Positions 7,958 through 26,663 of a stretch of 32,463 nucleotides of DNA are shown here, in pieces; within the stretch, counting starts at the first letter, position 1, and each line of letters opens with the position of its first letter. A program made the position numbers and the translations under genes. This DNA comes from Clostridia bacterium. GTDB taxonomy: Bacteria; Bacillota; Clostridia; Christensenellales; UBA1242. A model generated the notes under the pieces. The model made no database searches. It saw only the letters and a list, made by a program, of their open reading frames with translations, and was not told the origin of the DNA. The stretch covers positions 1-32,463 of the forward strand of contig JAZUPV010000079.1 in the NCBI GenBank assembly GCA_045605365.1. Reading direction: 5' to 3'.

Positions 7958-8120
7958 TTTTAGTACAAAAAGACAAAATTTAGTCTAAACTTTTTATCTC
8001 AAAGGTGTCTAAATAAATATGCATAATATTTTTTGTGTGTTAAACTTAACCCGTTCTTAATTTTTGTTGGGTGGACAACGGCAACAATTAATGACAAGGT
8101 TAAATATGTTGGAGGATAAG

Positions 8121-8906
8121 ATGGAAATTTCAAATCAAATAAAATTGGTCATTGTTGATGACAATGATAGTTATCGCAAGTCGCTAGTTTTAGACTTGCA
8201 AAATACTAAAGATTATAATATTGTAGGTGAGTGTTCTGATGGGGCAGAAGCACTTGCCATTATACAATCAACTTCACCTGATGTTGTACTATTTGATATA
8301 GTATTGCCAACAATAGATGGCTTTGAATTAATCGAAAAAGTTGCCGAAAATGATGCAATAAAACTTAAACCAAAGATGATTGTTTTATCTTCGTTAAAAA
8401 ACGAAGGTTTTGCGCAAAAGGCAATCTCTCTTGGGGCTAGTTATTATATGTCAAAACCAGTTAATTTTGATTTGCTGTCAAAACGTATCAAAGATACTTT
8501 GACCGATTTTAGTCAAGACACAGTAGAAAAGGTCTCTTGCATAAAATCTTCAAAAAACCGTATCCTTGACGAAAAGATTAGCAATATTTTCATAACAGTG
8601 GGCATACCTGCTCACATAAAGGGGTATCAGTTTTTAAGAGAAGCGATAAAGATGGCTATTGACAATCCAGAGATTATCAATTCTATTACAAAACAACTAT
8701 ACCCTTGTATAGCAGAAAGATTCGAAACTAGCGCCAGCAAAGTAGAACGTGCCATAAGACACGCTATAGAAGTTGCTTGGAATAGGGGCAAGATAGAAAA
8801 TATCAACAATCTTTTTGGTTTAAAAGTTTATAACAGCAACGAAAAACCAACCAACGGAGAGTTTATAGCACTTGTTGCAGACAAGATGCTTATAGAAGGG
8901 GCATAA
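8121..8906 (+). CDS. spo0A: Sporulation master response regulator Spo0A
   Basis: Receiver domain (KLVIVDDN, DVVLFDIVLPTIDG). Signature Spo0A C-terminal domain (GIPAHIKGYQFLREAI, SKVERAIRHAIEVAWNRG). Start placed at the ATG 4 nt after GGAGGA rather than at the TTG at 8064. Confidence 0.95.
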   Translation: MEISNQIKLVIVDDNDSYRKSLVLDLQNTKDYNIVGECSDGAEALAIIQSTSPDVVLFDIVLPTIDGFELIEKVAENDAIKLKPKMIVLSSLKNEGFAQKAISLGASYYMSKPVNFDLLSKRIKDTLTDFSQDTVEKVSCIKSSKNRILDEKISNIFITVGIPAHIKGYQFLREAIKMAIDNPEIINSITKQLYPCIAERFETSASKVERAIRHAIEVAWNRGKIENINNLFGLKVYNSNEKPTNGEFIALVADKMLIEGA

Positions 8907-9093: not shown

Positions 9094-9597
9094 ATGAAAA
9101 ACCCTGTATATATTAGATGTCCAAGATGTGAACTTAATTATATCCAAAAGAAAGATAAATTTTGTAATGTATGTAAAATCGAAATGAAAGCCGTTGGTAC
9201 ACTAGGTCTTGACGAAAACTTAGATTTAGAACTTTGCCCAGTATGTAAAGTTAACTATATCAACCCAGACGAAGATATGTGTGTAGCTTGCGCTAAAGAA
9301 AAAGCTCTTGAAGAAGGTCTTATCAATGACGTTGATAACGATAGCGATTGGGATAGCCTAAACAACGACGAAGGTCTATATAGCGAAGAAGAAGAAACTG
9401 GCGAGATGGTTTCTATCACTGATCTTGACGATAGTTCATTTGACAGTGACGAAGACACTCTTGGTCTAGGTCTTGACGATGACGAAGATTTGTTAGACGA
9501 AAAGATGGACGACGAAGATGGCTTTGACGACGATATGGACGATGCTTTTGATGATTTAGATGACGACATTGATGACCTAGATGATGACGAAGATTAA
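9094..9597 (+). CDS. Zinc-ribbon protein (two CxxC...CxxC pairs) with a roughly 90-aa poly-acidic C-terminal tail
   Basis: CPRCELNY...CNVCK and CPVCKVNY...CVACAK, then a D/E-rich tail ending DDLDDDIDDLDDDED. AAGGAG RBS. Confidence 0.7.
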   Translation: MKNPVYIRCPRCELNYIQKKDKFCNVCKIEMKAVGTLGLDENLDLELCPVCKVNYINPDEDMCVACAKEKALEEGLINDVDNDSDWDSLNNDEGLYSEEEETGEMVSITDLDDSSFDSDEDTLGLGLDDDEDLLDEKMDDEDGFDDDMDDAFDDLDDDIDDLDDDED

Positions 9598-10001: not shown

Positions 10002-11537
10002 ATGGCAGAAGATGCTAAACAAGAACAAATCAAACTTTGTACAAAAAGAAAACTAGCAACAATGCAACTAAAAAACAGTGCAACAATTGCCCACGAACAA
10101 CAGATAAAAATATCTAAAATTTTGACAGTTGTGGCTTGCCCTAGCGTTGAAAACGTAGAAGTAAACAACGCCGAAGCAAAGTTTGGTGTTAATGTAAGAT
10201 ATGACGCCCTAGTTTGCCTTGAAAACGGCGAAATTGTCACTCTTTCACAAACAGGTTCATCAACAACTTCGTGCGAAAATTCTTCAATTACGCCAGATAG
10301 CCACATAGATATTTTTGCAACAGTACTAGATGTAAGTAGCAATATTACTTCTGGCGAAGTTAATGTGACTAGCCTTATTAACTGTGACTTATATATCAGC
10401 AACAGAAATGTTTGCGTTAAGCAAATACAGTCTTTGCAAGATGTCTATACCAAAGAGTGCGAAGTAACAATTAATAGTTTCAAAACAAGCAATAGCTATT
10501 CTTCAACAATAACTTCAGAACTAGAAAATCAAGGCAAAATCTCGAAGATTATCTTTTGCAACTCTACAGGTACTATCAAAAGTATTACGCCAAACAATGA
10601 CTACTATACTATCAATGGTCAAGTTACAATCAATGCAATGTGTGAGTACGAAGACGGCCAAATAAAATCTCAAACACAAGACTTGCCACTAAACGAAGAA
10701 GTCGAATGCCAGGGGCTATCAAAAGACGATATCTTGCAGACAACATTTAACACCAAACCTTGCTCTAGCACAATTATTACTGATGCAGAAGGCAACACCC
10801 TTGTCAATGTAGAAGTACCATATAATGTGTCTTGTCATGTTTATCAAAAGACAAGCAGAGATTTTGTAGTAGATGCTTATAATATAGAAAAAGAACTTAA
10901 TCTTACTACAGAGTCTTATGAACAAAATGAGTTTTTGCCAACAAAATTTGTTGAAGAAACTATTATCTCAACATTTACCCTTACTGACGAAGCCCCTAGA
11001 GTCGAAAGAATCCTTTTGTCTACGGGCGAAAGTATATCTTTGGTTAACAGTTACCCAAAAAATGGCGAAATTGTAGTCGAAGGTATTGCCAATATCGGCA
11101 CTATTTATTATAGCGAAGACGAACAAGGCAACAAAGTACTAAACTCAGTAGTTATTGATGTGCCATACTCTCTATCTGTTTTAGCGCCAGAAGTGCGAGA
11201 AGGTGACAATGTAGAAGTAGAAGTTAAACTTGCCGATGTCAGTGTAAAAAACAAAAAGGGCAGAGAACTAGAAGTTATCGCCAATATAGTTGTTAGTTAT
11301 AGTGTCAATAGACCACAAGTTTTTGCTATAGCTACAGAGATAAACTTTGGAGAAACTAAGCCAAATAAAAATTACGCCCTAGAAATATACGTCGCCAAAG
11401 AAAACCAAACCTTGTGGGACGTAGCAAAACACCTTAATATCTCTACCGAAAACTTGCTTAGCCAAAACCCAGAGTTAAATTTGCCAATTAGTGTCGGTGA
11501 CAAAATAGTCGCTTATCACGGTGGTACAAGACAATAA
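10002..11537 (+). CDS. sipL: SipL-like spore morphogenetic protein (SPOCS/DUF3794 region plus C-terminal LysM)
   Basis: 511 aa. C-terminal LysM (YVAKENQTLWDVAKHLNISTENLLSQNPELNLPISVGDKIVAY). The size and the position next to veg match my recollection of clostridial sipL. Confidence 0.6.
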   Translation: MAEDAKQEQIKLCTKRKLATMQLKNSATIAHEQQIKISKILTVVACPSVENVEVNNAEAKFGVNVRYDALVCLENGEIVTLSQTGSSTTSCENSSITPDSHIDIFATVLDVSSNITSGEVNVTSLINCDLYISNRNVCVKQIQSLQDVYTKECEVTINSFKTSNSYSSTITSELENQGKISKIIFCNSTGTIKSITPNNDYYTINGQVTINAMCEYEDGQIKSQTQDLPLNEEVECQGLSKDDILQTTFNTKPCSSTIITDAEGNTLVNVEVPYNVSCHVYQKTSRDFVVDAYNIEKELNLTTESYEQNEFLPTKFVEETIISTFTLTDEAPRVERILLSTGESISLVNSYPKNGEIVVEGIANIGTIYYSEDEQGNKVLNSVVIDVPYSLSVLAPEVREGDNVEVEVKLADVSVKNKKGRELEVIANIVVSYSVNRPQVFAIATEINFGETKPNKNYALEIYVAKENQTLWDVAKHLNISTENLLSQNPELNLPISVGDKIVAYHGGTRQ

Positions 11538-12214: not shown

Positions 12215-12877
12215 ATGAAAAAGTATATCGCAATACTATGTACGTGTTTGGTATTTATAGTGGGTATATCGTGTATGTTTACATTAGTTTCAAACAACCG
12301 CCCAGAACAATCTCAAACTCTAACAGTAGCTAGCACTTCTCAAAACAAACAAATCCAACAAAAACTAAAAGACCTTGGTTATTATAACGGACAAATAGAT
12401 GGTATCTTAGGTGATGCTTCTATAAAAGCCATCAAAGCCTTTCAAAAAGATAATGGATTGGTTGCAGATGGTATAGTCGGGGCAAAAACCGCTGCTAAGC
12501 TAAACATCTCATTATCTACCCAAAACTCTAACGACTTGTATCTTCTTGCCAAGTGTGTTCATGCAGAAGCCAGGGGAGAAGTATATGTCGGTCAAGTAGC
12601 AGTCGCAGCCGTCATTTTAAACCGTGTAAAAAGCCCAGAATTCCCCAATACTATCTCAGGGGTTATTTATCAACCGTGGGCTTTTACCGCTGTACACGAC
12701 GGTCAAATCAACCTAGAGCCTAACCAAAGTGCCTACAATGCAGCACGTGACGCAATGAACGGTTGGGACCCAACTTATGGCTGTTTGTTTTATTACAATC
12801 CAGAAGTAGCCACTAGCAAATGGATATTTTCTAGACAAACTGTCGTAACTATAGGCAAACATGTCTTTGCAATATAG
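12215..12877 (+). CDS. sleB: Spore cortex-lytic enzyme SleB (PG_binding_1 plus Hydrolase_2 domains)
   Basis: Near-colinear match to the B. subtilis SleB catalytic domain (GQVAVAAVILNRV...FPNTISGVIYQP.AFTAV.DGQ...NGWDPT...ATSKWI...IGKHVF). Confidence 0.93.
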   Translation: MKKYIAILCTCLVFIVGISCMFTLVSNNRPEQSQTLTVASTSQNKQIQQKLKDLGYYNGQIDGILGDASIKAIKAFQKDNGLVADGIVGAKTAAKLNISLSTQNSNDLYLLAKCVHAEARGEVYVGQVAVAAVILNRVKSPEFPNTISGVIYQPWAFTAVHDGQINLEPNQSAYNAARDAMNGWDPTYGCLFYYNPEVATSKWIFSRQTVVTIGKHVFAI

Positions 12878-14257: not shown

Positions 14258-14287
14258 AAAAAACACGTCTTATGACGTGTTTTATTA
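14258..14287 (+). terminator. Rho-independent terminator
   Basis: Stem ACACGTC/GACGTGT with a TTAT loop, followed by TTTATT. Confidence 0.7.
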
Positions 14288-14384
14288 TATTTTTTTACAA
14301 AAATATTAAATATTCTTTACAATTTATTAACAATCTTTTATACTAAATAAAAATAATAAACAAAAACAAAGGTTATTTTAGAGT

Positions 14385-15563
14385 ATGGATAAAATATTTG
14401 ACGAAGCAACCCTTGCCCAAAGTAGTATCTTTGAACTAAGAAATATCGCCAGAGAGCTTGGGGTATATTCTCCTACTATTTATAAAAAAGAAGAACTAAT
14501 AGTCAAAATGATGCAAATTGTCAATGGCGAAGTATCTCCCTATGTGCCTAAGAGCAAAAAAGGCAGACCACCAAAAAATATGTCAACTAGCAAAATACTT
14601 GATACAGTTTTTGCTGAACAAGAATTTTTGGACCAAGACAAGTTTAGCATCAACTTTGGTGACAAAACATTAGTCTTGGGTGAGCATGTTAGAGAGTTTT
14701 TAGAAGATAACAACAACAAACCAAAAACTATGGTCAATTCTAGTGGATACTTTACATTAAGTACCGAAGGTTATGGTTTGATTAGAGATTTAAAAAATAT
14801 CAACGACATATCTACTTGTGTATATGTGTCTAGCCAACAAGTTGACAATTTTAAATTAAGGGTGGGTGACTATGTCACAGCCCTAACAAAAGTTGTTGCA
14901 AACGACAAACCAAGTATTTTTGTAGAAGCTATCTCTATCAATGGTCAACCATACAAAACAAGAACATATAATGATTTTGAAAGTATGCCAGTTGAGTTTT
15001 CTGTAGATAATATACAAGTTGCTACTAACAACGATGAGTTTGATATTGCTGTGGGCAAATGTACAATGTTTCTTAACAACAAGTCAAACAAAGTTGACCT
15101 TATGAACTTTATCAAAAATCTAAACGACAACAATGACCTTGCACCTGTTTTAGTTGGATTAGAAGTAACCAAAGAAACAGAACTATTTTTTAACAACCTA
15201 ACTAACGCAGAATCTTTCACAACTTTAATTGACCAGTCTGCGGCTTGCCATAGCTTGGTAGGGCATTTAGCTTTGCAAAGAGCAAAACGCCTTGCAGAAA
15301 GCGGCGAAGACGTCGTGCTTGTGGTTGATGGTCTAGACAAAGTCGTAAAAAACCAAAACTTATGTGATGGCAACAACTTATTAGACTTGACCGCCAAGAC
15401 TTTTGAAAGTGCTAAGCAATTTTTGGGGTGTGCCCGCAAGTTTGTCACTAGTGGCAGTTTGACAGTTGTAGCAGTTTATTATTACAAACAAAACAATACC
15501 TTTGACCAAACCATCATCGACGAGTTAGAAGGCTTATCTTCAAAAACAATTACTTTGTCATAA
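14385..15563 (+). CDS. Rho-like protein with Rho_N and OB RNA-binding domains but a degenerate, C-terminally truncated ATPase domain
   Basis: By-eye alignment to E. coli Rho. GYGLIRD aligns with GFGFLRS, and [20 protein letters not shown] with DIYVSPSQIRRFNLRTGDTI. The P-loop PPKAGKT is replaced by NKSNKVD, and LLIDERPEE by LVGLEVTKE. The protein ends right after SGSLTVVAV. Confidence 0.65.
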   Translation: [392 protein letters not shown]

Positions 15564-15677
15564 CATATATAATATGTATATATGTCAACATATTAATATA
15601 ATGATATATTAATATATAGCATACAACTTAATTAAAAAATACAGTTTAAGATATATTAACAATTATCTATAAGTTAA

Positions 15678-15713
15678 TAAAAAAATATCTACCAATCGGT
15701 AGATATTTTTTTG
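15678..15713. terminator. Bidirectional terminator between the convergent rho-like gene and the giant gene
   Basis: Stem ATATCTACC (15685-15693) pairs with GGTAGATAT (15698-15706), flanked by an A-run and a T-run. Confidence 0.75.
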
Positions 15714-15717
15714 TTTG

Positions 15718-18700
15718 TTATTTAACTCTCATCTTAGTTCTTAACTTAATAAATAGTATTATAGCAACAACTACGACAACAGATACTATTACAATAACGA
15801 TAATAGACATTGCGTTAAGTGGTTCTGCTCTGTTTACTCTAAAGCTTGTTATAACGTTGCCACTATCAGTTTCGATTTGAACATAATAATCGTGGGTTTC
15901 TGTTAGTGTAGCGGTTCTAGTAGCGCTAGAAGCAAGTGCATCGCTATCTATATCATATTTTGCATACAATACAAAGCCATTTGTATCTTTGTTGAAAGTA
16001 TAAATCTTTAGGTATGATTTACCAACTTGTTGATATATCAAACTTGGGTTGTAAGTAAGTGTGATAGTGCCTTTTGTTGTTTTGCCATACTCTGGGTCAC
16101 TTAAGATAATAGGTGTAGCATTGTTTATCTTAAATGCAAAAGTATATTCTTTAGCAGCAAGTAGTTCGTTATATGTTACGGCTACTGTTATTTGATAACT
16201 ACCATTGCCAAATATATCAGAAGTAACAAACAATTCTCTCAAAGCATAATTTTCAAGCATATCAGCAGTAATGATTACGTTAGCAGCTGATTTTTTGATG
16301 TAATATTCTTTTACTTGTTGAGTGATATCTTTGTTGTCTTTGTATATCTTTACAATCTCATAACCTAGCATTTCATTAAACTCATATGCAAGTCTAGCAG
16401 AAGTTTGCTCGATTATTGTAAAGTTATATGTTGCTGGTGATAAGTCTGCATTGTTGTTAGCAAGGTTGATGTTAGAATGATATTTTGCATGCAATGTTAC
16501 TTGGTATCTACCTGACTCAGTAAATGTAAAGTCATATCCGCCTTCGCCAGTTACATATCTGTCATAAGCTGTACCATTGCGATATACAGTAGCATAGATT
16601 GATTTAGAATCATACTTATCTGCAAACTGTCTATCTATAGACAATGTTACGCTACCATTAAATGTCATATAATCTAATGGGGTAGAGTTGTTAACATTAT
16701 AGATAATTTTATCTAGTATAGTTAATGTATGATAACTATAAGATGCTGCTACTGTACCACGAGAAGTAAATACTGCAGTGTTACCAGCGTTATCTTTAAA
16801 TGTTAAGATATGTTTGCCTGTACCAGAAATTGTTATAGAAGATTTTCCAGCAGACATTGTACCATAATTTTTAAATGAGTTATTAGAATTATAATTGTAG
16901 TTCAAATAAATCAAGTTACCAGAAGTATACCATTCTGATCTGTTTGAAGAAACTGAATTCCAAGTTAGTGTAACGCTACTATTGGTTACGTCTTGGTTAG
17001 TAAGCATACTGTCTGTTTTGTTTTCTAATGCATCTTCTGTACCGTCTATTCTCTTATATCTTAAAGATGTCAAGATATTGTTAGTTTCTGGTACTTTAGT
17101 GATACAAATTAGATTTGAATAAATTGGGTTATTGATACCATAGATTAAGTAGAAAGTAGTAACATAAGAATTTTTGCTTAGTATAGATTTTGTATAAGTA
17201 CCATTTTCAAAAGTCACAACAAACTCGTGCAACTCACTAGAAGCATCTTTTTGCAAGTGTGTTTCATTTAGTGAGAAGTATTGTTCGATTTGAGTAGGTG
17301 CTTCACTCAATTTAGCAAGCAAAGTAGTCTTTAGTGTGCTATCAGTTACTGTAGAGTTGATAACGTTTTTGATTTGTTCAAATATTGATCTGCCTGTACC
17401 AACGTCAGTGTTGTTAAGGATATCAAGTTTTACACTAGAAGGTAACAATGTTTCGTTGGTTTTGCTATCGTATACTGTATAGAAAGGTATATCGCCATCT
17501 TGTATTGCAAAAGATACTGTACGATAATTACCAAGAACAGTATTGCATATTTCAACCATATAATAACCAGGTTTTGTTACAACTCTGTTGTTGTCAATAT
17601 CAATAGTATTGATTGTTTGACCACTAGCATCAAGAGTATGTAAAGAAACTCTTGAACTATATATTGCTGAGTGTGGAGCATCTTCTATATCTGCCCAGTT
17701 GATTTTTACTGCAGAAGATGTTAGAGCCATACTGCCACCAGATGTAGAACCTGAAATTGAAGCGTTATTGTTGTCGTATAGGTTGATAGCTGGCAATTTG
17801 TTATAAATAACAAAGGTTTGTTTTGATAATACGCTGCCGCTAGAGATATCATTATAATAAACTACATAAGTTATCTCTCCGCCGATATCTACGTTAGATG
17901 GTGTACCGGTAACAATATTAGGTTGTTTTAGTATAACTGTTTTAAAACCTTCTGTTGAACCTTGGTATACATCAGGGTAGGTGTCTGTACCAGCAGTAAT
18001 TTGGTTGCCACCGTTGGCTGAGATTGTTACAGAATGAACTTTTGATTGATAAGTCAATCTAATATCTCCACCAGTATAAATTGTGCCATTTGTAGCTTCA
18101 AAATATTTATCATTATAATAAATATATTGTTCTTCTTTAGATACATATTCTATACCAAGTTGCATTGTATAAGAATATGGTGCACTGTTAAAGTTGTCTT
18201 GATAAGTTACAAAGTATACACCTTCTGGCAAGTTTTCACTCTTTGTAGGCATATTGTTGTAGCCAGATTCTTCTTGAATAATCTTACCTTGGCTATCTGT
18301 AATTTGCAAATTAGTTAAGTAAATAACACTATCTGCTTGTTTTACAGGGAATTGTAAATAATATGTGCCATCAGAGTTTTTTACTATAGTAGGTGGCTCT
18401 AGTTTTTGTTCAAACTTAACTAAGTTTATAAACTTGCTAGTATTACCTGCGCTAGAACGTAGGTTAAATTGGAAACGAGAATTCATATCAGCTACGATAT
18501 AATCGTTGATTTTGTTTGAGTTGATATAGTTTTCGTTATATGTGATATAAGGTGTGATAGTTATAGTGATTGGATTTTTTGTAGTAGTTGTAAGGTCGCT
18601 TATAACCAAAGATCCCCAACCAACTTCACTTGTTACACTGTCTACAGCAACTAGACCAAGTTGAGTTATTTCTTGGGTATTTGTTAACATTGCGTTGCCG

Positions 18701-21700
18701 CTTTGGTCTTTTGCTTGAATGTTTAGTATGTTGTATAGTTGACTTCTATCAATAAAGTATACTGTAAAGGCTCTATAGTTACCTGCAAGGTCACGTTCGA
18801 TAATTTCGTAGAAGCCCTCCATCTTGCTTACATTTGACATACCAGTGGTTTGACGAATGATTTGTTCAAGTGTCATACCTACTTGATATTTAGCTTCGTA
18901 CCAGCCTTGACTATTAGATACATAATCAAATCTTGGGAAGTTAGAGAAACTTTCTAATGAAGAATAACTTGGGTGGTCAGGTGTCAAAGCTTGATGTTGA
19001 TCTTCATATTTACGATATTTTCTAAAGTAGAATTCAGGTATTGTATCTTCTCCGTCATAACTTAGTATGTAAGAAGAAGCGTCTACAGTAAATGCATAGT
19101 CATAAATTGTTGGAGTAGTAGTGCTATAAATAGCCTTTTCTTCTTTGAAGTTCTCTTTTACGTCATCTTTAGAAGAATAATAACTAGAAGAAACAAGATA
19201 TGTATCAGTATCAATCAATGTATCGATATTGATGTTTGGTTTTGTACGGTCAATTTTTACTCTATAAGATGTGCTTACAAAGTCGCCATAACCGTGATCT
19301 TTTACTGCTGTTGGAGCATAACGTATCTCTATGATGTAGTCGATTTCTTCGTCTATATTAAGAGTAACTTTATAACTATGTTGAGTATAAGTCTTAAATT
19401 CAAATTCGTCAGTGCTTAGTATTACGATACTAACTGCTTTTATGAATGTGTATTCTGTCAAATCGATCTCTTCTTCGCCTTGAGCGATTTTGTCTACGTT
19501 AAGTTGAGTAAAGTCGATTGTTTCAGTTTTGTCATTAGCTGTGATATTAATTTCTACAACACTTGCAGTATATGGGTCAACTGCGTCGTCCCATACAAAA
19601 TCAACTACGCCAGTGTCTGGAGAAACGTTTGTTGCAAAAGAATTTTCTTGTACAGTACTCTTTGCCATTGGTTCGTTATTAACATATACGTGACCTTCTG
19701 GGGCAGTGTGTTCAATAACAAAAGCACAGCTGTATTTCATAGGGTTGATATTATCAAGACCGCTTTCTAAGTCAGAATAACCTGTGTGGTCATTGATAGT
19801 TATTGTATAACGACCTTCTGCTGTAAACTCAGGTATTACAAAATAACCTTCTTTTGTAAATTCAGTTATTCTATAAGTAACAACTGGAGAAAAAGCAACT
19901 GCAGTGTTTTGATAAGTAATAACAACTTCTAACTCGTTAAAACTTAGTCTGCACATTACGTTGTCAATAGCAGAACCTTCGTCAACAAAGTATTTGTATA
20001 TAGGTATATTGATTTGTACTGGCAACTTGTTAGTTGTTAGTATTGGTGTGCCACTAGATACACTACGGAAGAAGTTTTTAAATTCATATTTGTTGTTTGT
20101 GCCGTTACCTAGTGTGATAGATATATGTTCGCCGACAGCTCTTACATTGCCTGCTTGATATGTTGTAGAGATAATACCATTGTGGTCAATGTATACAGTG
20201 TAGCTACGTTCAAATCTGTCATTACCAAATGATACCTTGTTGCCTTCAGCATCATATTCGCCATAACCTTGAGCGTTGTTGCCGTCTTTGTCATATCCGC
20301 CGCCGACATAAGTACGAGTTAGTGTGTACTTACCAGCACGGGTTTTGCCTTCTTCTAAGTTGATGTTGTTGATATGATAATAATCATCTGCACCTTTTAC
20401 AGTAGGCAAAGTAAAGTTATTTTGATCAGTTGGATTAGAGCTAAATGGATAAGTTGTGCTACCAGCATCATAGTTAAATGCATAATATTTGTAACTTATC
20501 TTAGCTATTTTGTACATACCATCTTCTTCGGCATCTTTGTACTTAAATGATAATACGTGTAAGTTTGTACCAGAGTTGGTTGTGATATAGTGAGAAGTGT
20601 TATCTCCATTGTCTTCGCCGCTAGCCCAGTATTGACCGCTTGCGTTGTCAAAGTTCATCTCAACTCTAAGTTTTCTTTCTGTACCATTTTTAGCTACTGC
20701 AGTAAAGTTATATCTTTGTTCTCCTGCAAATAGTGTACCTTGTACTGAGTTAGGGTATAGGTTGATTAACCAATAATCTTTAGGATCAAGAGTACCGTTT
20801 GTCTTTGCACCAGTATCAGTATTTTCAATTGTATAATTGATTGTAGTGATAGGTATGATTACAAATCCGCGAGTATCGTCATCACTGATTGCTTCATAAG
20901 ATGTCGCTTTAAAGAAATTAACAAATTGTTCTGCGGTGCTGTCTGCCGGATATGTTTGAGTTAAAAATCTAGCATTGATAGCTTTGTATTCACCAAAGGT
21001 AACTCTAGTGTGAGTTTTTACAAAGTTTGGTTGGTTGTTGATTGGGTCAAAACTATTTGCCCAAGTATTTGTTGATTCGTTATAAGACTCTTGTATAAAT
21101 CTTGATTGTGTAGAGTCTAACATAATCATTCTATAAAACTCATTGCCTGCAAAGTCTTTTACGTGGAATAGGTATATACCATTTGCAGTTAAATATTGAG
21201 TTTCGTTAAGTGGACTTGCGTTAAAACTATTTGTATAAGTAATCTCTGATAAGTCGCCAGTAGAATAACCATTAGTTAGTAGGTGAGAGATAGAATCATC
21301 TGCATTTGTTACTTCAACAGCTTCTACTGTGTCGTTAGTGTTGTTGATAGGTATATAGTAACTATCTACTGTAGTAGTTATACCGTCTTTAGTTCTGCTT
21401 GCCCATTTCTTCTCTGCCCAGTTGATGCTAAATGATTTGCCTGTAAGAGACATATCATAGCCAAATGGAGAACTTAAGTCGGCGATTTGGTCTACAGTCT
21501 TTATTGTTGTATCAAGGATATATTCTCCATTGACAACTTGAGTGTTGTATATGTTGATATTTGTGATAGGAGAACTATCTACAAAATATTCATATCTAGA
21601 TTTTAGTCTGCTTGGGCTATAAGTTATACTGATTATGTATCTACCATTTTCGGTATAAGGCAACGCAAAGTTTTTGGTGTTGTCCCATACATAATTAAAG

Positions 21701-23586
21701 TATTGTTCACCATCTATTTCTACAATAACAGGTGTGCCACTAGCTTCGGTTTTTTGAATAAGTGGTACATCTAATTGAGTGATGTTGTCATCATAATTAG
21801 AGTATCTTGTATAAGCTAGTGATACAGGTGCGTTAAATGCATTTGCATTGTTCTTAACAAGAACTCTAATATTTTTGTTGGTGTATATAGAAGACATCTC
21901 TTCGATATTGCCATCTTGGTCGATTGTTTGGAAGATGGTTATTGGAGCAGTGTTGTTTATTTCAAACAAGAACAACTGTGAACCATAGTATCTATTGCCA
22001 TAACTTGTTACAACATTGTAGTCAAGTTTAACAACATATACGCCATCTTTATCAAATTTAGAAGTTTGAATATAATCTAATGTTGGGTTGGTTGCAGATG
22101 TTGTAAATACAGCATCTTTTATATTTAATTTAAAGTAGTATTTGCCGTCTGTGTCATCATAATCCATAAAAGATGTGTGAATTTCGTTCATAGCATCTTC
22201 TAAGGTTGTAAAGATTTTGAAATGACCCTTTTTGTCATTAAGTTCTGTTACGTTATAATTAAATCTAACAGGAGCTTGGTCAGTTGTTGGATGTAACTCT
22301 GGGATAAAACCTTGAGTAACATTAGTTATTGTATTTGGTGTAGCTGGGTCGCTATCATCATCAAGCGAAATTGTATGGCTACCAGCAATGTCAGCGTGAG
22401 TAATTTCGTTTGCAAATTTTTTATAAGTATTAGTTGCTTGATCTTTATAAGTTATCTCATAACCAAATATTGTTAAAAACTTTACAGTAGTATCGGCTAG
22501 TCCTGCAACTTCTGTTATGATATAACCACTAGCAGTTGAAACTAGCAAATCTACGCCAAACTGATAGTCACCAAAACTATTCAGCATTATTTCTGCATTA
22601 TAAGGTACTGAGTTGCCATCAGCGTCCTCAATCTTTCTTGTTGGTACGCTAAAGGTTTGTCCACTACCTTCTTGTTCAAATATTACGTTACCGGTATGTG
22701 TACCAATAGCTTTTGATTCTGCCTCGCTTGCTGACATAATTGGTGTAAAGTTGCGGTAGATATATTTGTAACTTGTATTGCCTAGGGTATAAGTATAGTT
22801 AAGAGCAAAGATGTTTGCATTGTAAGTTATCACAGGGAATACTAACTCACCAGATGCGTTGTATTTGTTAAAGTTATAAGCATAAGCTTCAACCTTTCTA
22901 TTTTCTAGGGTAGCATCTTGAACTCTATCTGCATATTTTATTGCATAAGAAGAAGCATCTTTAAAGTAGTCATATTTGTTTATCAAAGTAAAGCTCATAT
23001 AAACTACAGACTCTGTATCAGAGATAACGCCGTTTTGAGTATAACGATATGTAAAGGTAAATTCATATTCACCCACACGGTCTTCAATTTCAATAGGTGT
23101 TAGGTTGCCGTCATTCCAATACATTGGATAACTATCTCTTAGGCTTATACGATATTCTACAAAAGCATCTTGGGTGTTGGCTTCGTTTTTAGAAACGGTG
23201 ATTGGGTTGCCATTAAGAGTTGCGTTGATGTTCAAGCTGGCAGTTGATACTGTTGCTTCGTTACCAAGTTCTAAAGCAGTCTTTTGTCTGTTGAATCTAA
23301 CATAAAGCGTTGTACTGTTTAATGCTATATCGCTTGCGTCTGTAGATAATAATACATAGTCGCCACTTTCGTAGTTGGTGTACTGTGCATTGTACAGACC
23401 ATATAGAGCATACGGTACGCCACCATCAGCTTCTTTCCAAACTATCTCGTTTGTCGGCTCTGGTGCGTCGGCATATGCTTGTCCGCTATGCTCTACATTG
23501 GCTAGCGCAGTAAAAACGCCTACCGACAAAAAACATAGTAGGACAGATAAACTAATAATCAAATTTTTTAGAGTCAACTTTTTCAT
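15718..23586 (-). CDS. Giant (2622-aa) surface protein with a signal peptide, many divergent beta-sandwich-like modules and a C-terminal TM anchor
   Basis: Uninterrupted 7.9-kb ORF with an AGGGAG RBS. N-terminal signal peptide (MKKLTLKNLIISLSVLLCFLSVGVFTALA). C-terminal hydrophobic helix plus basic tail (IIVIVIVSVVVVVAIILFIKLRTKMRVK). No LPXTG motif. Confidence 0.9.
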   Translation of the reverse strand: MKKLTLKNLIISLSVLLCFLSVGVFTALANVEHSGQAYADAPEPTNEIVWKEADGGVPYALYGLYNAQYTNYESGDYVLLSTDASDIALNSTTLYVRFNRQKTALELGNEATVSTASLNINATLNGNPITVSKNEANTQDAFVEYRISLRDSYPMYWNDGNLTPIEIEDRVGEYEFTFTYRYTQNGVISDTESVVYMSFTLINKYDYFKDASSYAIKYADRVQDATLENRKVEAYAYNFNKYNASGELVFPVITYNANIFALNYTYTLGNTSYKYIYRNFTPIMSASEAESKAIGTHTGNVIFEQEGSGQTFSVPTRKIEDADGNSVPYNAEIMLNSFGDYQFGVDLLVSTASGYIITEVAGLADTTVKFLTIFGYEITYKDQATNTYKKFANEITHADIAGSHTISLDDDSDPATPNTITNVTQGFIPELHPTTDQAPVRFNYNVTELNDKKGHFKIFTTLEDAMNEIHTSFMDYDDTDGKYYFKLNIKDAVFTTSATNPTLDYIQTSKFDKDGVYVVKLDYNVVTSYGNRYYGSQLFLFEINNTAPITIFQTIDQDGNIEEMSSIYTNKNIRVLVKNNANAFNAPVSLAYTRYSNYDDNITQLDVPLIQKTEASGTPVIVEIDGEQYFNYVWDNTKNFALPYTENGRYIISITYSPSRLKSRYEYFVDSSPITNINIYNTQVVNGEYILDTTIKTVDQIADLSSPFGYDMSLTGKSFSINWAEKKWASRTKDGITTTVDSYYIPINNTNDTVEAVEVTNADDSISHLLTNGYSTGDLSEITYTNSFNASPLNETQYLTANGIYLFHVKDFAGNEFYRMIMLDSTQSRFIQESYNESTNTWANSFDPINNQPNFVKTHTRVTFGEYKAINARFLTQTYPADSTAEQFVNFFKATSYEAISDDDTRGFVIIPITTINYTIENTDTGAKTNGTLDPKDYWLINLYPNSVQGTLFAGEQRYNFTAVAKNGTERKLRVEMNFDNASGQYWASGEDNGDNTSHYITTNSGTNLHVLSFKYKDAEEDGMYKIAKISYKYYAFNYDAGSTTYPFSSNPTDQNNFTLPTVKGADDYYHINNINLEEGKTRAGKYTLTRTYVGGGYDKDGNNAQGYGEYDAEGNKVSFGNDRFERSYTVYIDHNGIISTTYQAGNVRAVGEHISITLGNGTNNKYEFKNFFRSVSSGTPILTTNKLPVQINIPIYKYFVDEGSAIDNVMCRLSFNELEVVITYQNTAVAFSPVVTYRITEFTKEGYFVIPEFTAEGRYTITINDHTGYSDLESGLDNINPMKYSCAFVIEHTAPEGHVYVNNEPMAKSTVQENSFATNVSPDTGVVDFVWDDAVDPYTASVVEINITANDKTETIDFTQLNVDKIAQGEEEIDLTEYTFIKAVSIVILSTDEFEFKTYTQHSYKVTLNIDEEIDYIIEIRYAPTAVKDHGYGDFVSTSYRVKIDRTKPNINIDTLIDTDTYLVSSSYYSSKDDVKENFKEEKAIYSTTTPTIYDYAFTVDASSYILSYDGEDTIPEFYFRKYRKYEDQHQALTPDHPSYSSLESFSNFPRFDYVSNSQGWYEAKYQVGMTLEQIIRQTTGMSNVSKMEGFYEIIERDLAGNYRAFTVYFIDRSQLYNILNIQAKDQSGNAMLTNTQEITQLGLVAVDSVTSEVGWGSLVISDLTTTTKNPITITITPYITYNENYINSNKINDYIVADMNSRFQFNLRSSAGNTSKFINLVKFEQKLEPPTIVKNSDGTYYLQFPVKQADSVIYLTNLQITDSQGKIIQEESGYNNMPTKSENLPEGVYFVTYQDNFNSAPYSYTMQLGIEYVSKEEQYIYYNDKYFEATNGTIYTGGDIRLTYQSKVHSVTISANGGNQITAGTDTYPDVYQGSTEGFKTVILKQPNIVTGTPSNVDIGGEITYVVYYNDISSGSVLSKQTFVIYNKLPAINLYDNNNASISGSTSGGSMALTSSAVKINWADIEDAPHSAIYSSRVSLHTLDASGQTINTIDIDNNRVVTKPGYYMVEICNTVLGNYRTVSFAIQDGDIPFYTVYDSKTNETLLPSSVKLDILNNTDVGTGRSIFEQIKNVINSTVTDSTLKTTLLAKLSEAPTQIEQYFSLNETHLQKDASSELHEFVVTFENGTYTKSILSKNSYVTTFYLIYGINNPIYSNLICITKVPETNNILTSLRYKRIDGTEDALENKTDSMLTNQDVTNSSVTLTWNSVSSNRSEWYTSGNLIYLNYNYNSNNSFKNYGTMSAGKSSITISGTGKHILTFKDNAGNTAVFTSRGTVAASYSYHTLTILDKIIYNVNNSTPLDYMTFNGSVTLSIDRQFADKYDSKSIYATVYRNGTAYDRYVTGEGGYDFTFTESGRYQVTLHAKYHSNINLANNNADLSPATYNFTIIEQTSARLAYEFNEMLGYEIVKIYKDNKDITQQVKEYYIKKSAANVIITADMLENYALRELFVTSDIFGNGSYQITVAVTYNELLAAKEYTFAFKINNATPIILSDPEYGKTTKGTITLTYNPSLIYQQVGKSYLKIYTFNKDTNGFVLYAKYDIDSDALASSATRTATLTETHDYYVQIETDSGNVITSFRVNRAEPLNAMSIIVIVIVSVVVVVAIILFIKLRTKMRVK

Positions 23587-23844
23587 ACAAAAAATTCTCC
23601 CTGCTTTTGTAAAATACTATCAAGTTTCTCTCAAGTAGTATTTTCTAAATTTTTACAAATATGTCACAAAAACACATTATGTTATATAATACAATATATT
23701 TTAACATAATATATTATATATAACAAATTATTTAAGCCAAATTTTTTGCAAAAATTTGAGTTAAAAACGCCTTAATTTTTATATATAGCAGGGTTAAAGA
23801 TGTGTTAAATAGTTGTTGACAAGCAAAGTTAATAAGATATACCA

Positions 23845-23952
23845 CAGCCATACAAGTTGATTAACTTGTTGTCAAGGCATAACTATATGCTATGTCTCCC
23901 GCCACCTTGCGAAGTGGCATTGACTAGGGTGGTTTTTAATCCCTAGTTTTTT
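23845..23952 (+). ncRNA. Candidate orphan structured small RNA: four tandem hairpins, the last with a U-tract
   Basis: Hairpins at 23852-23869, 23877-23890, 23901-23918 and 23924-23946, followed by T6. TTGACA at 23816-23821 with only a weak -10 (TATACC). No plus-strand gene upstream or downstream. Confidence 0.2.
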
Positions 23953-24002
23953 ATTTATAACAAATTGTATTTTTGTACTTGTAGATAGTTTTTTTATTGC
24001 AC

Positions 24003-24036
24003 AAAAAAAAGACTGGCAAATAACCAGTCTTTTTTG
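24003..24036. terminator. Bidirectional terminator after the coupling-protein gene
   Basis: Stem AGACTGG/CCAGTCT, flanked by A8 and T5. Confidence 0.75.
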
Positions 24037-24042
24037 TTTTTA

Positions 24043-26022
24043 TTAAATGTCATCGTCGATAGAGAATGTTGCTTTTGGTTTTAATACCTTTGCATTTCTG
24101 TCGACAATGCTATAACTTACTTCTTGTTCGTTAAGAGCACGACTAGGGACATAATTGTCAGAAGTTTTTGTTAAGTTAAATTGTGGTGTTGCCCAAGCCA
24201 TACTTGTTTTTGTTCTGATTGGGAATTCATTAAGTATTTTGATAATGATTTCGCTATGAGCACCACTTTCTAAGTGACCCAACTCATCAGGGTAGATAAG
24301 TGGACGAGAAACCATATTTTTGTTTGTAGAACGGTTAGTTTCGTCTTTACCTTTAGTTTCTGATACGCTGGTTGTTTCTAGTGATATTTCACCGCAAAGT
24401 TTACTAAATTCTTCACAAGTTTTTGCGTCGTCAGTACCGATAAATATCTTGATAGGGCAGTTACCTTTGATGGTTTGAGCTACGTCGCTACCATATTTAG
24501 CATCAAGCTGACTAAATGATTGGATAACTAGAGCAAAGAATACGTTTCTACTACGTGATACGGTGATCATACTGTCAATCTTCTCAATCTTAGGCAAGTT
24601 AGCAAACTCATCAAGCAAGAAGTATACTGTACGTGGTAGTTTGTAGTTAGGGTAGTTGTTGGCAAGGTCAACAAGTTTTTTGTACAATTGTGAAATACAC
24701 ATTGTTGCTATACCGTGACGAGCTTCTTTTTCATCAGGGATAATAATAAAGAATGCTGTTGGTTTATCTGCAAAAGTATTAAAGTTCATTTCGTTCATAC
24801 TTGTTGCAAAACACATACCTGAGTCGTTAAAGATACCAAGTCTGGCACTTACAATACCCATATATGATTTGGTTGTAGTTGGAGCATTGTTAATAGCTGT
24901 ACTTACTAGTTGAGGTACTTTACTAAATTTATCTCTACCAGTATAGTATTGTCTAAGTGTTTTGTAAGGGTTTTCTGGGTCGGTGTCTTTGTAGTTACAT
25001 ATTCTTGCTAGGTTGTAGAAGTTGTATCTTTCTCTTGTCATACCAAGTTCAGGGTTTCTACTATCTTCTAACATTGCAAGAAGTGTACCATATACAAACT
25101 CTTGAGCACCTCTATCCCAGCTGGCGTCGTTTTTGTTTTCTATTGGACAGATAATACCAGCAATTTCTCTCAGTTCGTTTTCTGCCAAGTCGATAAGTTC
25201 TGCCTTTTTAGAGTTTAGGTCGCTATCCAAAACTTCTTTGTTAGGATAAGCAACTCCGCCAAACTCGTACCATTCGTTGTTATATTCTTTAGAAATAACC
25301 TTTAGTTTTAAATCAGCTGGATTAACATTTGTGTGAGTTTTTACTTTTTTATGTAGTTCGAAAGCATCTTGATACATCATAAATGCGTTATCAAGTGGAT
25401 TCCATCTAGTAGATGCATAAGGTTGACGTAGGTTAAATACCTTTACATCATATCCTTCTGCACGAAGTTTTATTGCGTTCTTTTCGTATAGCTCGCCTTT
25501 AGGGTCGCTGACAACAAAACTTGGTTTTGATTTTGTAGTAGATAGTACTTGTAGTTGTGGTATGATAAATTTTTGTGTTTTACCAGTACCAGTAGTACCA
25601 ATGATAAGTGCGTGAATAGGTTCGTACATATTTACATGTAGGTCATGACCTCTAACTTCACTTCTAAGCAACATACCATCGTTTGAAGATTTTAGAGAGT
25701 TCCATGTGCAGTACATAAACTTCTTTTCGGTCTTAAGTTCTTTTTCAGAAACCCAACGGCTATCAAAGTATTGAGAAGTTTCGTTACCTTTCTTATCTTT
25801 AGCACCAACTTCACTTTTAAATTCTTTCTTTGCCAATTTGTTAAGAAGAAATACTAAATAAGCACCAATGCCGACAACTAATATGCCTACAAAATACATA
25901 CTGCCAAAGACGGCTTCGTAGTCTGGGCTTATGATTTCTCCTGATGTTACGTAACTGCCTACAACATAAGCTGCTGCAAAGGCAAGTAGCGAAACAAAAA
26001 TAAATCCTAAAAATTTTTTCAT
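24043..26022 (-). CDS. Type IV secretion coupling protein (VirD4/TraG family ATPase)
   Basis: Two N-terminal TM helices. Walker A IIGTTGTGKTQKF, the DPKGE motif, Walker B YFLLDEFANLPKI, and SRSRNVFFALVIQSFSQLDAKYG. AAGGGGA RBS. Confidence 0.85.
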   Translation of the reverse strand: MKKFLGFIFVSLLAFAAAYVVGSYVTSGEIISPDYEAVFGSMYFVGILVVGIGAYLVFLLNKLAKKEFKSEVGAKDKKGNETSQYFDSRWVSEKELKTEKKFMYCTWNSLKSSNDGMLLRSEVRGHDLHVNMYEPIHALIIGTTGTGKTQKFIIPQLQVLSTTKSKPSFVVSDPKGELYEKNAIKLRAEGYDVKVFNLRQPYASTRWNPLDNAFMMYQDAFELHKKVKTHTNVNPADLKLKVISKEYNNEWYEFGGVAYPNKEVLDSDLNSKKAELIDLAENELREIAGIICPIENKNDASWDRGAQEFVYGTLLAMLEDSRNPELGMTRERYNFYNLARICNYKDTDPENPYKTLRQYYTGRDKFSKVPQLVSTAINNAPTTTKSYMGIVSARLGIFNDSGMCFATSMNEMNFNTFADKPTAFFIIIPDEKEARHGIATMCISQLYKKLVDLANNYPNYKLPRTVYFLLDEFANLPKIEKIDSMITVSRSRNVFFALVIQSFSQLDAKYGSDVAQTIKGNCPIKIFIGTDDAKTCEEFSKLCGEISLETTSVSETKGKDETNRSTNKNMVSRPLIYPDELGHLESGAHSEIIIKILNEFPIRTKTSMAWATPQFNLTKTSDNYVPSRALNEQEVSYSIVDRNAKVLKPKATFSIDDDI

Positions 26023-26051
26023 AAATTGTCCCCTTATGTATTGATGGTTAT

Positions 26052-26081
26052 ATTATAATACTAAAATGAGTTTTTTAACAA
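26052..26081 (-). promoter_or_regulatory. Candidate sigma-A promoter for the coupling-protein gene
   Basis: On the minus strand: TTGTTA, 18-nt spacer, TATAAT. Confidence 0.3.
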
Positions 26082-26203
26082 CTAAAAAAGTACTAAAAAT
26101 ATTATTTTTGTTAAAAATAAATATTGTATTTGACCTATTAAATTAGAAAAAATACTTTTTTTAAAAAAACTTTCAAAAAAAATATATTTTTTTGTAAAAA
26201 AAG

Positions 26204-26232
26204 TTGCAATCATATAAAAAGTGTGCTATATT
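26204..26232 (+). promoter_or_regulatory. Candidate sigma-A promoter with an extended -10
   Basis: TTGCAA (26204-26209), 17-nt spacer ending in TGc, then TATATT (26227-26232). It lies about 40 nt upstream of the 26274 ORF. Confidence 0.5.
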
Positions 26233-26273
26233 ACAGTTAGTAAAAAACAAAAATATGATTTGGAGGGCATAAA

Positions 26274-26663
26274 ATGTCATTTTTAACTAGTTTAGCTACA
26301 ATCTTTTTAAACAATCCACTTTTTGCTGCATTGTTCTATAGTTCAGACACTTGGAGCAAGGATGGAATGAAAAAGTTCTCTTGGTTGAGTCCTATTGCGA
26401 AATTCCTTGATGATGCACTTATCCCAGTAATCATTGTTGTTGGTGCTCTTGGTGCTATTTGGATTATTATCCTTGGTGTTAACCTAGCTCGTGCAGAGAC
26501 AGCTGATAAAGCAAGTGAAGCTAAAAAACGTCTTATCAACGTTGTTATCGCACTAGTTGCAGTACTTATCTTAATCTTCTTACTAGCATTCTTCGTAACA
26601 AACGCTCCAACTTGGTTCGCTGATACATCAACAATCAACCCATTTGAACAAAGCGGAAAATAA
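26274..26663 (+). CDS. Small membrane protein with VirB2/TrbC pilin-like topology
   Basis: 129 aa with a hydrophobic N-terminus. Two TM helices (IPVIIVVGALGAIWIIILGV and VVIALVAVLILIFLLAFFV) are joined by a short charged loop (ARAETADKASEAKKR). GGAGGG RBS. Divergent from the T4CP gene. Confidence 0.45.
   Translation: MSFLTSLATIFLNNPLFAALFYSSDTWSKDGMKKFSWLSPIAKFLDDALIPVIIVVGALGAIWIIILGVNLARAETADKASEAKKRLINVVIALVAVLILIFLLAFFVTNAPTWFADTSTINPFEQSGK

Follow-up and report, generated by a model that had tools for sequence, protein, structure and literature searches.

The question raised by the stretch analysed here, 32,463 nucleotides of a Clostridia bacterium (GenBank assembly GCA_045605365.1, contig JAZUPV010000079.1; hereafter the window), is where a gene for a Rho-like protein without the ATPase motifs of the transcription termination factor came from and what such a protein could still do. 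The ATPase domain is usually the most conserved part of Rho, and to our knowledge lineages have so far been described as either retaining a functional Rho or losing rho altogether. The gene in question lies at 14385-15563 on the forward strand and follows the forespore genes spoIIR, sleB and ypeB. An initial annotation, made from the sequence alone, described its product as a paralog of Rho that keeps the RNA-binding half, has lost the ATPase motifs and the C-terminus, and might regulate or modulate termination. Our analysis points to a different history, to which we assign a probability of roughly 0.6: the gene would be this lineage's own rho locus, converted into a non-motor protein that binds nucleic acid and/or RNA polymerase independently of ATP.

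The open reading frame (ORF) was evaluated with profile searches and found to be real and derived from Rho. Pfam Rho_RNA_bind matched residues 120-189 at 36.4 bits (E 4.5e-9), above its gathering score of 27, and Rho_N matched residues 10-40 at 20-22 bits, below its gathering score of 24.9. The two NCBIfam Rho equivalogs (NF006886 / TIGR00767) aligned residues 8-391 with profile positions 4-342 of 413, and the whole-protein scores of 96.3 bits (cut-off 315) and 79 bits (cut-off 509) fell far below the curated cut-offs, while a canonical control, P0067, scored 612 and 596 bits (P numbers denote proteins and L numbers loci in our set). The score against NF041509 (paralog_Rho2) was 65.8 bits for a cut-off of 628. 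Searched against the PDB with phmmer, the protein gave significant matches to Rho chains only, the best being 8hsj at 4.5e-17, and the C-terminal half alone reached 12.8 bits vs 29.5 (E 0.093) with Pfam ATP-synt_ab. All of the Rho_N, OB and RecA-like alignments quoted in the initial annotation were reproduced using MAFFT with an E. coli Rho reference sequence that was checked and is identical to PDB 1PV4; residues of Rho are given below in E. coli numbering.

The fold was assessed with an AlphaFold2 model built with 45 family members in the alignment. The model had a predicted local distance difference test score (pLDDT) of 80.8 and a predicted template modelling score (pTM) of 0.71, with pLDDT of about 90 in the OB and RecA-like parts and predicted disorder at residues 56-113. 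Foldseek with this model returned Rho chains in 50 of the 50 matches listed (E about 3e-21, TM about 0.6), and rigid superposition of the domains on Rho chains gave a root-mean-square deviation of 3.1-3.5 A over about 300 columns. The pLDDT of about 90 over residues 223-392 together with this superposition identified a RecA-like fold of the Rho kind. The gene and the parts of its product are as follows:

14385-15563, forward strand: Rho-derived ORF, putatively ATPase-dead and C-terminally short, 392 amino acids plus stop, uninterrupted
14385-14525, forward strand: Rho_N-type helix bundle (helix-extended-helix), residues 1-47, with modelled helices at 7-11, 15-25 and 35-46
14526-14582, forward strand: basic AT-hook-like motif NGEVxPYVPKSKxGRPPK, residues 48-66, recognised from invariant columns and charge
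14583-14723, forward strand: variable acidic linker, residues 67-113, predicted to be disordered from pLDDT and identity
14724-14954, forward strand: OB fold homologous to the primary RNA-binding domain of Rho, residues 114-190, recognised from Pfam Rho_RNA_bind and residue mapping
14955-15050, forward strand: connector between the OB and RecA-like domains, residues 191-222, placed from the AlphaFold2 model and identity
15051-15560, forward strand: RecA-like domain without P-loop, catalytic Glu, Arg valve, Q-loop or R-loop, residues 223-392, placed from alignments and the AlphaFold2 model

Compared with canonical Rho (PDB 1PV4, 3ICE, 8HSJ) the protein has the same domain order of helix bundle, OB and RecA-like domain and the same fold, and it retains a GYGFxR-type OB motif, the Walker B Asp and the AKRL and GSLT motifs, but it is without Walker A, the catalytic Glu, the Arg valve, the Q- and R-loops, the Arg finger and about 70 C-terminal residues. 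The Walker A position (APPKAGKT in E. coli) reads N-NKSNKV with both K184 and T185 substituted, and the pattern [AGS]xxxxGK[ST] was found nowhere in the entire 392-residue protein. Residue mapping thus agrees with the earlier report of a missing P-loop, and no intact P-loop had been misplaced. IDERPEE is replaced by GLEVTKE, which turns the catalytic E211 into V and the Arg valve R212 into T, and R269 is replaced by K. At the secondary RNA-binding site the Q-loop segment containing K283 is deleted and K326 of the R-loop reads T. The C-terminal end of the protein corresponds to about E. coli residue 346-359 and precedes the Arg finger R366, so that the C-terminal helices (about 70 residues) are absent and profile positions 343-413 of the Rho equivalogs are unmatched; the early C-terminal stop had been seen correctly. 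One label needs correcting. The initial annotation read LLIDERPEE, here LVGLEVTKE, as Walker B; the loss of this motif is right, but LLIDERPEE carries the catalytic Glu and the Arg valve, and the true Walker B Asp (D265) is kept as D315 in VVLVVDG. Judged from these residues the protein would be unable to bind or hydrolyse ATP in the manner of Rho, or to thread or translocate RNA, and because there would be no ATP-driven translocation on RNA, termination by the Rho mechanism would be impossible. The mapping of the motor residues therefore supports the non-translocating, C-terminally truncated Rho derivative that had been proposed.

The position of the gene was compared across related genomes. 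Gene order in the window is PSP1/yaaT, a methyltransferase gene, tatD, ksgA, spo0A (8064-8906), veg, sipL (10002-11537), spoIIR, sleB, ypeB, the Rho-like ORF, a convergent gene for a 2622-residue protein, a VirD4/TraG-like gene and yfhO, in a surrounding stretch of 33% GC. In 19 of 19 species the degenerate gene followed spo0A, a small zinc-ribbon ORF, veg, sipL, spoIIR, sleB and ypeB, with a giant surface protein and VirD4 encoded on the opposite strand. A canonical Rho gene occupies the same slot in related Clostridia. P0278 (GCA_028698585.1) and P0277 (GCA_036651915.1), both with standard P-loops and both named 'transcription termination factor Rho' in the NCBI source records, lie in the order veg-sipL-ispE-spoIIR-sleB-ypeB-rho-mnmA. 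P0238, with all catalytic residues and scores of 532 bits (cut-off 315) and 504 bits on the second equivalog, adjoins ypeB in convergent orientation, and the canonical P0175 lies three genes beyond ypeB. Intermediate forms were also found in the slot. P0044 (472 residues, 117 bits) has a GEKASGKT P-loop, E211K and no Arg finger, P0039 and P0042 (472-502 residues) have no P-loop and keep DERPE and the long C-terminus, and P0049 (419 residues) is a further intermediate. Unrelated canonical Rho proteins were instead encoded in a pyrG(-tal)-rho context.

Phylogeny was assessed with a maximum-likelihood tree of 65 sequences, 41 of them degenerate, with support from the SH-like approximate likelihood ratio test (SH-aLRT). 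All 41 degenerate forms fell into one clade (SH-aLRT 99), nested in a clade (100) with clostridial canonical Rho. Branches in the degenerate clade were several times longer than canonical ones, and the least-decayed members, P0043, P0045 and P0137 ('SPKYSKI'), branched first within it. The nearest canonical relatives in the tree were clostridial Rho proteins with an N-terminal insertion (P0238, P0277, P0278 and P0175), annotated 'transcription termination factor Rho [Clostridia bacterium]', which share the locus and the N-terminal pattern L..LR..A...GV..PT...K..L......G...P......GRPP with the degenerate protein and differ from it in keeping every catalytic residue and the full C-terminus (504-532 bits). 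Because canonical rho and intermediates occupy the slot and the degenerate forms make up a single clade inside clostridial Rho, the gene is probably a positional ortholog of rho that decayed stepwise rather than a spare copy, and 'paralog' was probably the wrong word for it. The simplest history has a common ancestor with rho after ypeB and decay in place.

The ORF was intact in independent assemblies. Contigs from four independent gut-metagenome runs span it with substitutions only and no indels; third codon positions hold 24 of the 33 listed substitutions, and the sole indel among these contigs is at 15678, in the spacer that follows the ORF. Another assembly (L034) has a homolog with 93% identity, of the same length and in the same context, and against this homolog the ratio of nonsynonymous to synonymous substitution rates (dN/dS) was 0.078, compared with 0.013-0.082 for the neighbours sipL, spoIIR, sleB, ypeB and spo0A. 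By domain the ratio was 0.028 for residues 1-64, 0.064 for the OB fold and 0.087 for the RecA-like domain. Dozens of homologs share a common C-terminal end point. A sequencing or assembly artefact, which the initial annotation had named as a possible cause of the truncation, is refuted by the four agreeing runs, the L034 homolog and the shared end point; nothing was found in its favour, and its probability is negligible.

Within the protein, constraint has moved. Identity within the short clade compared with that among canonical relatives was 0.54 vs 0.34 in the helix bundle and 0.58 vs 0.38 in the GRPPK linker, and 0.24 vs 0.47 in the OB fold and 0.30 vs 0.74 in the RecA-like domain, which is the best-conserved part of P0238, P0277, P0278 and P0175. 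Between the two groups, the RecA domain of the degenerate proteins is about 21% identical to that of canonical relatives. Fifteen of the 16 columns invariant across 45 members lie within residues 15-64 (IFELR..R..GV..PT ... G...P...GRP.K), among them G60, R61, P62 and K64. The GRPP motif and the N-terminal pattern are also present in the canonical syntenic Rho proteins, indicating that the pattern is ancestral. Constraint is therefore inverted: the helix bundle and GRPPK are now the chief target of selection, and the OB and RecA-like domains are relaxed. The description of a protein that keeps its RNA-binding half holds in so far as the OB fold is detectable, but not in the sense that this is the well-conserved part (24% vs 54-58% in the N-terminal 66 residues).

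The conserved linker, residues 48-66, has a net charge of +4 and an isoelectric point (pI) of 10.2 and is the sole basic stretch of a protein that is acidic overall (pI 5.0). The N-terminal 115 residues, searched with Pfam for SAP, HeH and AT-hook models, gave only the sub-threshold Rho_N match, so the term AT-hook-like is taken from the motif itself. The acidic linker that follows is the counterpart of the N-terminal insertion region of clostridial Rho; its identity within the clade is 0.19, and pLDDT falls below 50 at residues 56-72, 83-101 and 111-113. In the OB domain the GYG(L/F)xR motif and Y147 are kept, and the pocket is partly kept, with F64 replaced by L and R66 and Y80 retained.

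The distribution of the family was determined by two protein searches and a genome scan. A word-indexed search gave about 50 clusters at 90% identity, 380-425 residues long, with a P-loop in none, and 238 matches at E<=1e-30 came from an exhaustive profile search across 1.8 billion representatives. GK[ST] was absent at the P-loop in 139 of 233 aligned relatives. Of these 139 degenerate sequences, 106 have GRP[PA]K around position 60 and 81 extend no further than E. coli residue 362, and the Walker B Asp position reads D in 65 and N in 39. An intact ORF was carried by at least 91 clusters at 50% identity. The GTDB genome scan gave no match with a single-protein query; an alignment-based query found the degenerate gene in 19 GTDB species, all of them metagenome-assembled genomes of uncultured Clostridia from human, ruminant and other guts, two being labelled Christensenella or Christensenellales. 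The phyletic spread that the initial annotation had left to be checked is thus that of a gut clostridial family. Coding GC was 26-38% in the degenerate-Rho loci and 40-52% in the syntenic canonical-Rho relatives; loss of the motor accompanies AT-richness, with no direction of cause and effect implied. A separate group of JGI-called Rho proteins of about 400-460 residues (P0098-P0120) reads AQPRSGRT at the P-loop (K184 to R) and Ser in place of the Arg finger R366. The other motor residues checked in this group (E211, R212, D265, R269) are intact, and it may be another non-standard Rho lineage.

Several features of the flanking DNA bear on how the gene is expressed:

14260-14293, forward strand: intrinsic-terminator-like hairpin AAAACACGTC-TTAT-GACGTGTTTT with a T-rich tail, 29 nucleotides past the ypeB stop, RNAfold free energy (dG) -12.2
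14294-14344, forward strand: two overlapping sigma-70-like promoter candidates (TTTACA-18-TACAAT and TTTACA-17-TATACT), consensus match 10/12
15676-15715, no strand assigned: long AT-rich hairpin with flanking A- and T-runs, resembling a bidirectional terminator, between the convergent Rho-like and 2622-residue genes

The spacer between ypeB and the gene is 153 nucleotides long, and the promoter candidates sit in spacer DNA of 16% GC. The hairpin after ypeB is present as an identical element in L034, and 15 of 21 degenerate loci have a terminator-like hairpin in this spacer. The gene was inverted relative to ypeB in two loci, one degenerate (L012, 10001-11212) and one canonical (L031, 5471-6940), so it has flipped in place at least once with the slot unchanged. 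Given the terminator and promoter-like sites in the spacer and the inversion in L012, the gene in the window is probably its own transcription unit.

Several points weigh against a rho gene converted in place into a nucleic-acid or polymerase binder with its own promoter. The degenerate clade grouped with P0148, P0190, P0175 and P0233, outside the clade of P0238, P0277 and P0278, at a weakly resolved node. Positional orthology is also compatible with a duplicate relocated elsewhere in the genome, the compared loci covering about 20-30 kb per genome. Loss of rho in Bacilli is reported to be accompanied by a drop in sense-strand purine content (PMC13323073). Here this content was 0.54 in both the degenerate-Rho and the canonical-Rho loci (0.542 vs 0.544, from small samples of differing GC), and since the two are equal there is no compositional sign of lost Rho pressure. 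The overall acidity (pI 5.0) and the partly kept OB pocket mean that nucleic-acid binding is not assured. Three loci with spacers of about 85 nucleotides lack a terminator, so that in some lineages the gene may be transcribed together with ypeB.

These points lend some weight to other explanations. If a canonical Rho were present in the same cell, as a modulator would require, the degenerate protein could be an extra copy that affects termination through competition for rut RNA or poisoning of the hexamer. Its fold and its N-terminal and OB modules are those of Rho, which makes RNA competition or co-assembly conceivable, the equal purine bias is what is expected with a working Rho present, and a second rho could lie beyond the 20-30 kb or so scanned per genome. 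Within those related loci, however, tblastn with canonical Rho found known genes only and no second Rho homolog, and the slot is held in relatives by canonical rho and by intermediates. PMC11347177 describes second rho genes as rare in Bacillota. The protein also has none of the C-terminal region, the Arg finger or the ATP-site interface elements that make contacts in the ring, and a RecA domain with only about 21% identity to that of canonical relatives makes co-assembly with canonical Rho doubtful. We consider an extra copy unlikely. Far less probable still, and close to refuted, is a functionless relic of a rho gene on its way out. The gene has been lost in Streptococcus and Negativicutes, and the way in which motifs and later the C-terminus disappeared step by step along the clade, together with its long branches, would suit such decay; but the dN/dS of 0.078 overall and at most 0.09 in every domain, the third-position-biased variants without indels across four metagenomes, the intact ORFs in 19 GTDB species and at least 91 clusters, and an N-terminus more conserved than that of working Rho relatives all argue for a maintained function.

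An explanation that is compatible with orthology is a sporulation-specific factor, co-expressed with spoIIR-sleB-ypeB, whose target would be RNA or DNA of the developing or dormant spore. The linkage to these genes was invariant in every locus examined, all carriers are spore-formers, some lineages have the short spacer of about 85 nucleotides without a terminator, and B. subtilis Rho is reported to have sporulation-specific expression and to be needed for spore morphogenesis (PMC11599450). Adjacency to the forespore genes is nevertheless not in itself evidence of a sporulation role, because canonical rho had that position already and the linkage, being inherited, carries no functional information of its own. 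In the window a terminator and sigma-70-like promoters lie between ypeB and the gene, and the inversions in L012 and L031 also speak against co-expression. A sigma-F, -G, -E or -K promoter was not found, no search aimed at one having been made. The location directly after spoIIR-sleB-ypeB, to which the initial annotation drew attention, is accordingly correct, but the significance it might suggest does not follow, and a dedicated sporulation factor appears improbable.

We therefore favour conversion of the resident rho locus, and the following course would account for it. The ancestor, among AT-rich, spore-forming, uncultured gut or rumen Clostridia (some records of which are labelled Christensenellales), would have had rho just after spoIIR-sleB-ypeB, already with a helix-bundle N-terminus and a basic GRPP linker. 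In one descendant clade the P-loop, the catalytic Glu and the Arg finger would have been lost first, the central-channel loops next and about 70 C-terminal residues last, with purifying selection on the gene maintained throughout. The main targets of selection would now be the helix-extended-helix bundle at the N-terminus and the AT-hook-like GRPPK motif, with the OB fold and the intact RecA-like fold as a possible structural or oligomerisation scaffold. The product would need no ATP to bind its target, which would be single-stranded RNA, AT-rich DNA and/or RNA polymerase with its cofactors, and it is possibly oligomeric and expressed from its own promoter. Status as the sole Rho-family gene, the ligand, the oligomeric state and the cellular role are here only inferred. 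For the clade as a whole, we put it at about even odds that the sole Rho-family gene is a motor-less rho descendant in which selection has shifted to the helix bundle and GRPPK.

The neighbourhood of the gene has features of its own. Taken from the ATG at 12861, the longest ypeB ORF shares 17 nucleotides with the end of sleB (12861-12877), and the gap between spoIIR and sleB is 15 nucleotides; this spacing and the terminator after ypeB suggest that spoIIR, sleB and ypeB form a tight unit. Between spo0A and veg lies an ORF of 167 residues (9094-9597, forward strand) whose N-terminal 75 or so residues are 73-94% identical in 16 of 19 loci and whose only Pfam match was a weak double-zinc-ribbon (E 3e-4). 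The 2622-residue gene (15718-23586, reverse strand) had no Pfam match, and its product is hydrophobic at the N-terminus and carries a membrane anchor at the C-terminus. Next come the VirD4/TraG-like gene (24043-26022), a homolog of type IV coupling proteins, and a membrane ORF of 129 residues (26274-26663) with weak similarity to pilins of type IV secretion systems (T4SS). The order of giant protein and coupling-protein gene is kept beside the degenerate Rho wherever the contig reaches, with VirD4 45-90% identical, and neither is found next to canonical Rho in L032 and L033, where mnmA takes that place; 15718-26663 looks like a chromosomally fixed T4SS-like module. In L001 (8271-10001) about 1.7 kb separates ypeB from the Rho-like gene, compared with 85-320 nucleotides elsewhere, which may be an insertion, and sleB was recovered as two separate tblastn pieces in L011 and L013, which may reflect an insertion or a frameshift. 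Scans of the window with Rfam and for tRNA genes gave no matches.

Proteins of this general kind have been noticed before. In the main text of Moreira et al. (2024, NAR 52:8979, PMC11347177; 2730 RefSeq genomes), 'Rho-like sequences' are those in which only the N-terminal and RNA-binding domains were detected. They are listed there in 421 species, with their description left to the supplement, and the sole Rho-related genes of Baekduia soli and Conexibacter woesei are of this class. The same text gives functional Rho as absent in 30% of Bacillota. By Pfam, rather than by those authors' own HMMs (hidden Markov models), the window protein falls under their definition, to which it adds a RecA-like fold, stepwise decay documented at an orthologous locus, selection and a shift of constraint. 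Neither that main text, its supplement apart, nor further literature searches gave a specific description of the degenerate family, which thus belongs to a category noted in the literature but not characterised. Two other departures from standard Rho differ from it. The short second Rho of Group B (NF041509), also a non-standard member of the family, is built the opposite way according to the main text of PMC11347177, without an N-terminal domain and with its catalytic residues kept. Proteins with Rho_N only, such as cyanobacterial DUF4912 and plant plastid RHON1 (PMC13613805), resemble it, as judged from the literature, in using the Rho helix bundle outside a working motor, but they contain neither an OB nor a RecA-like domain, and their genes are not orthologs of rho by position.

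Together these data describe a natural series at one locus, running from canonical Rho through an altered P-loop and then no P-loop to no P-loop with a shortened C-terminus. That the series remained under purifying selection while constraint moved to the N-terminus points towards a function of the Rho scaffold that is independent of the motor. The series provides ready-made separation-of-function variants that split motor from non-motor functions. Domain-based surveys would score these gut Clostridia as being without Rho or, wrongly, as having it, and a working factor should not be taken for granted when Rho-dependent termination is predicted in this group. If the reading proposed here is true, Rho, at least of the clostridial type with the N-terminal insertion, has a second, ATP-independent activity that was kept after termination was lost, possibly the binding of RNA polymerase, RNA or AT-rich DNA.

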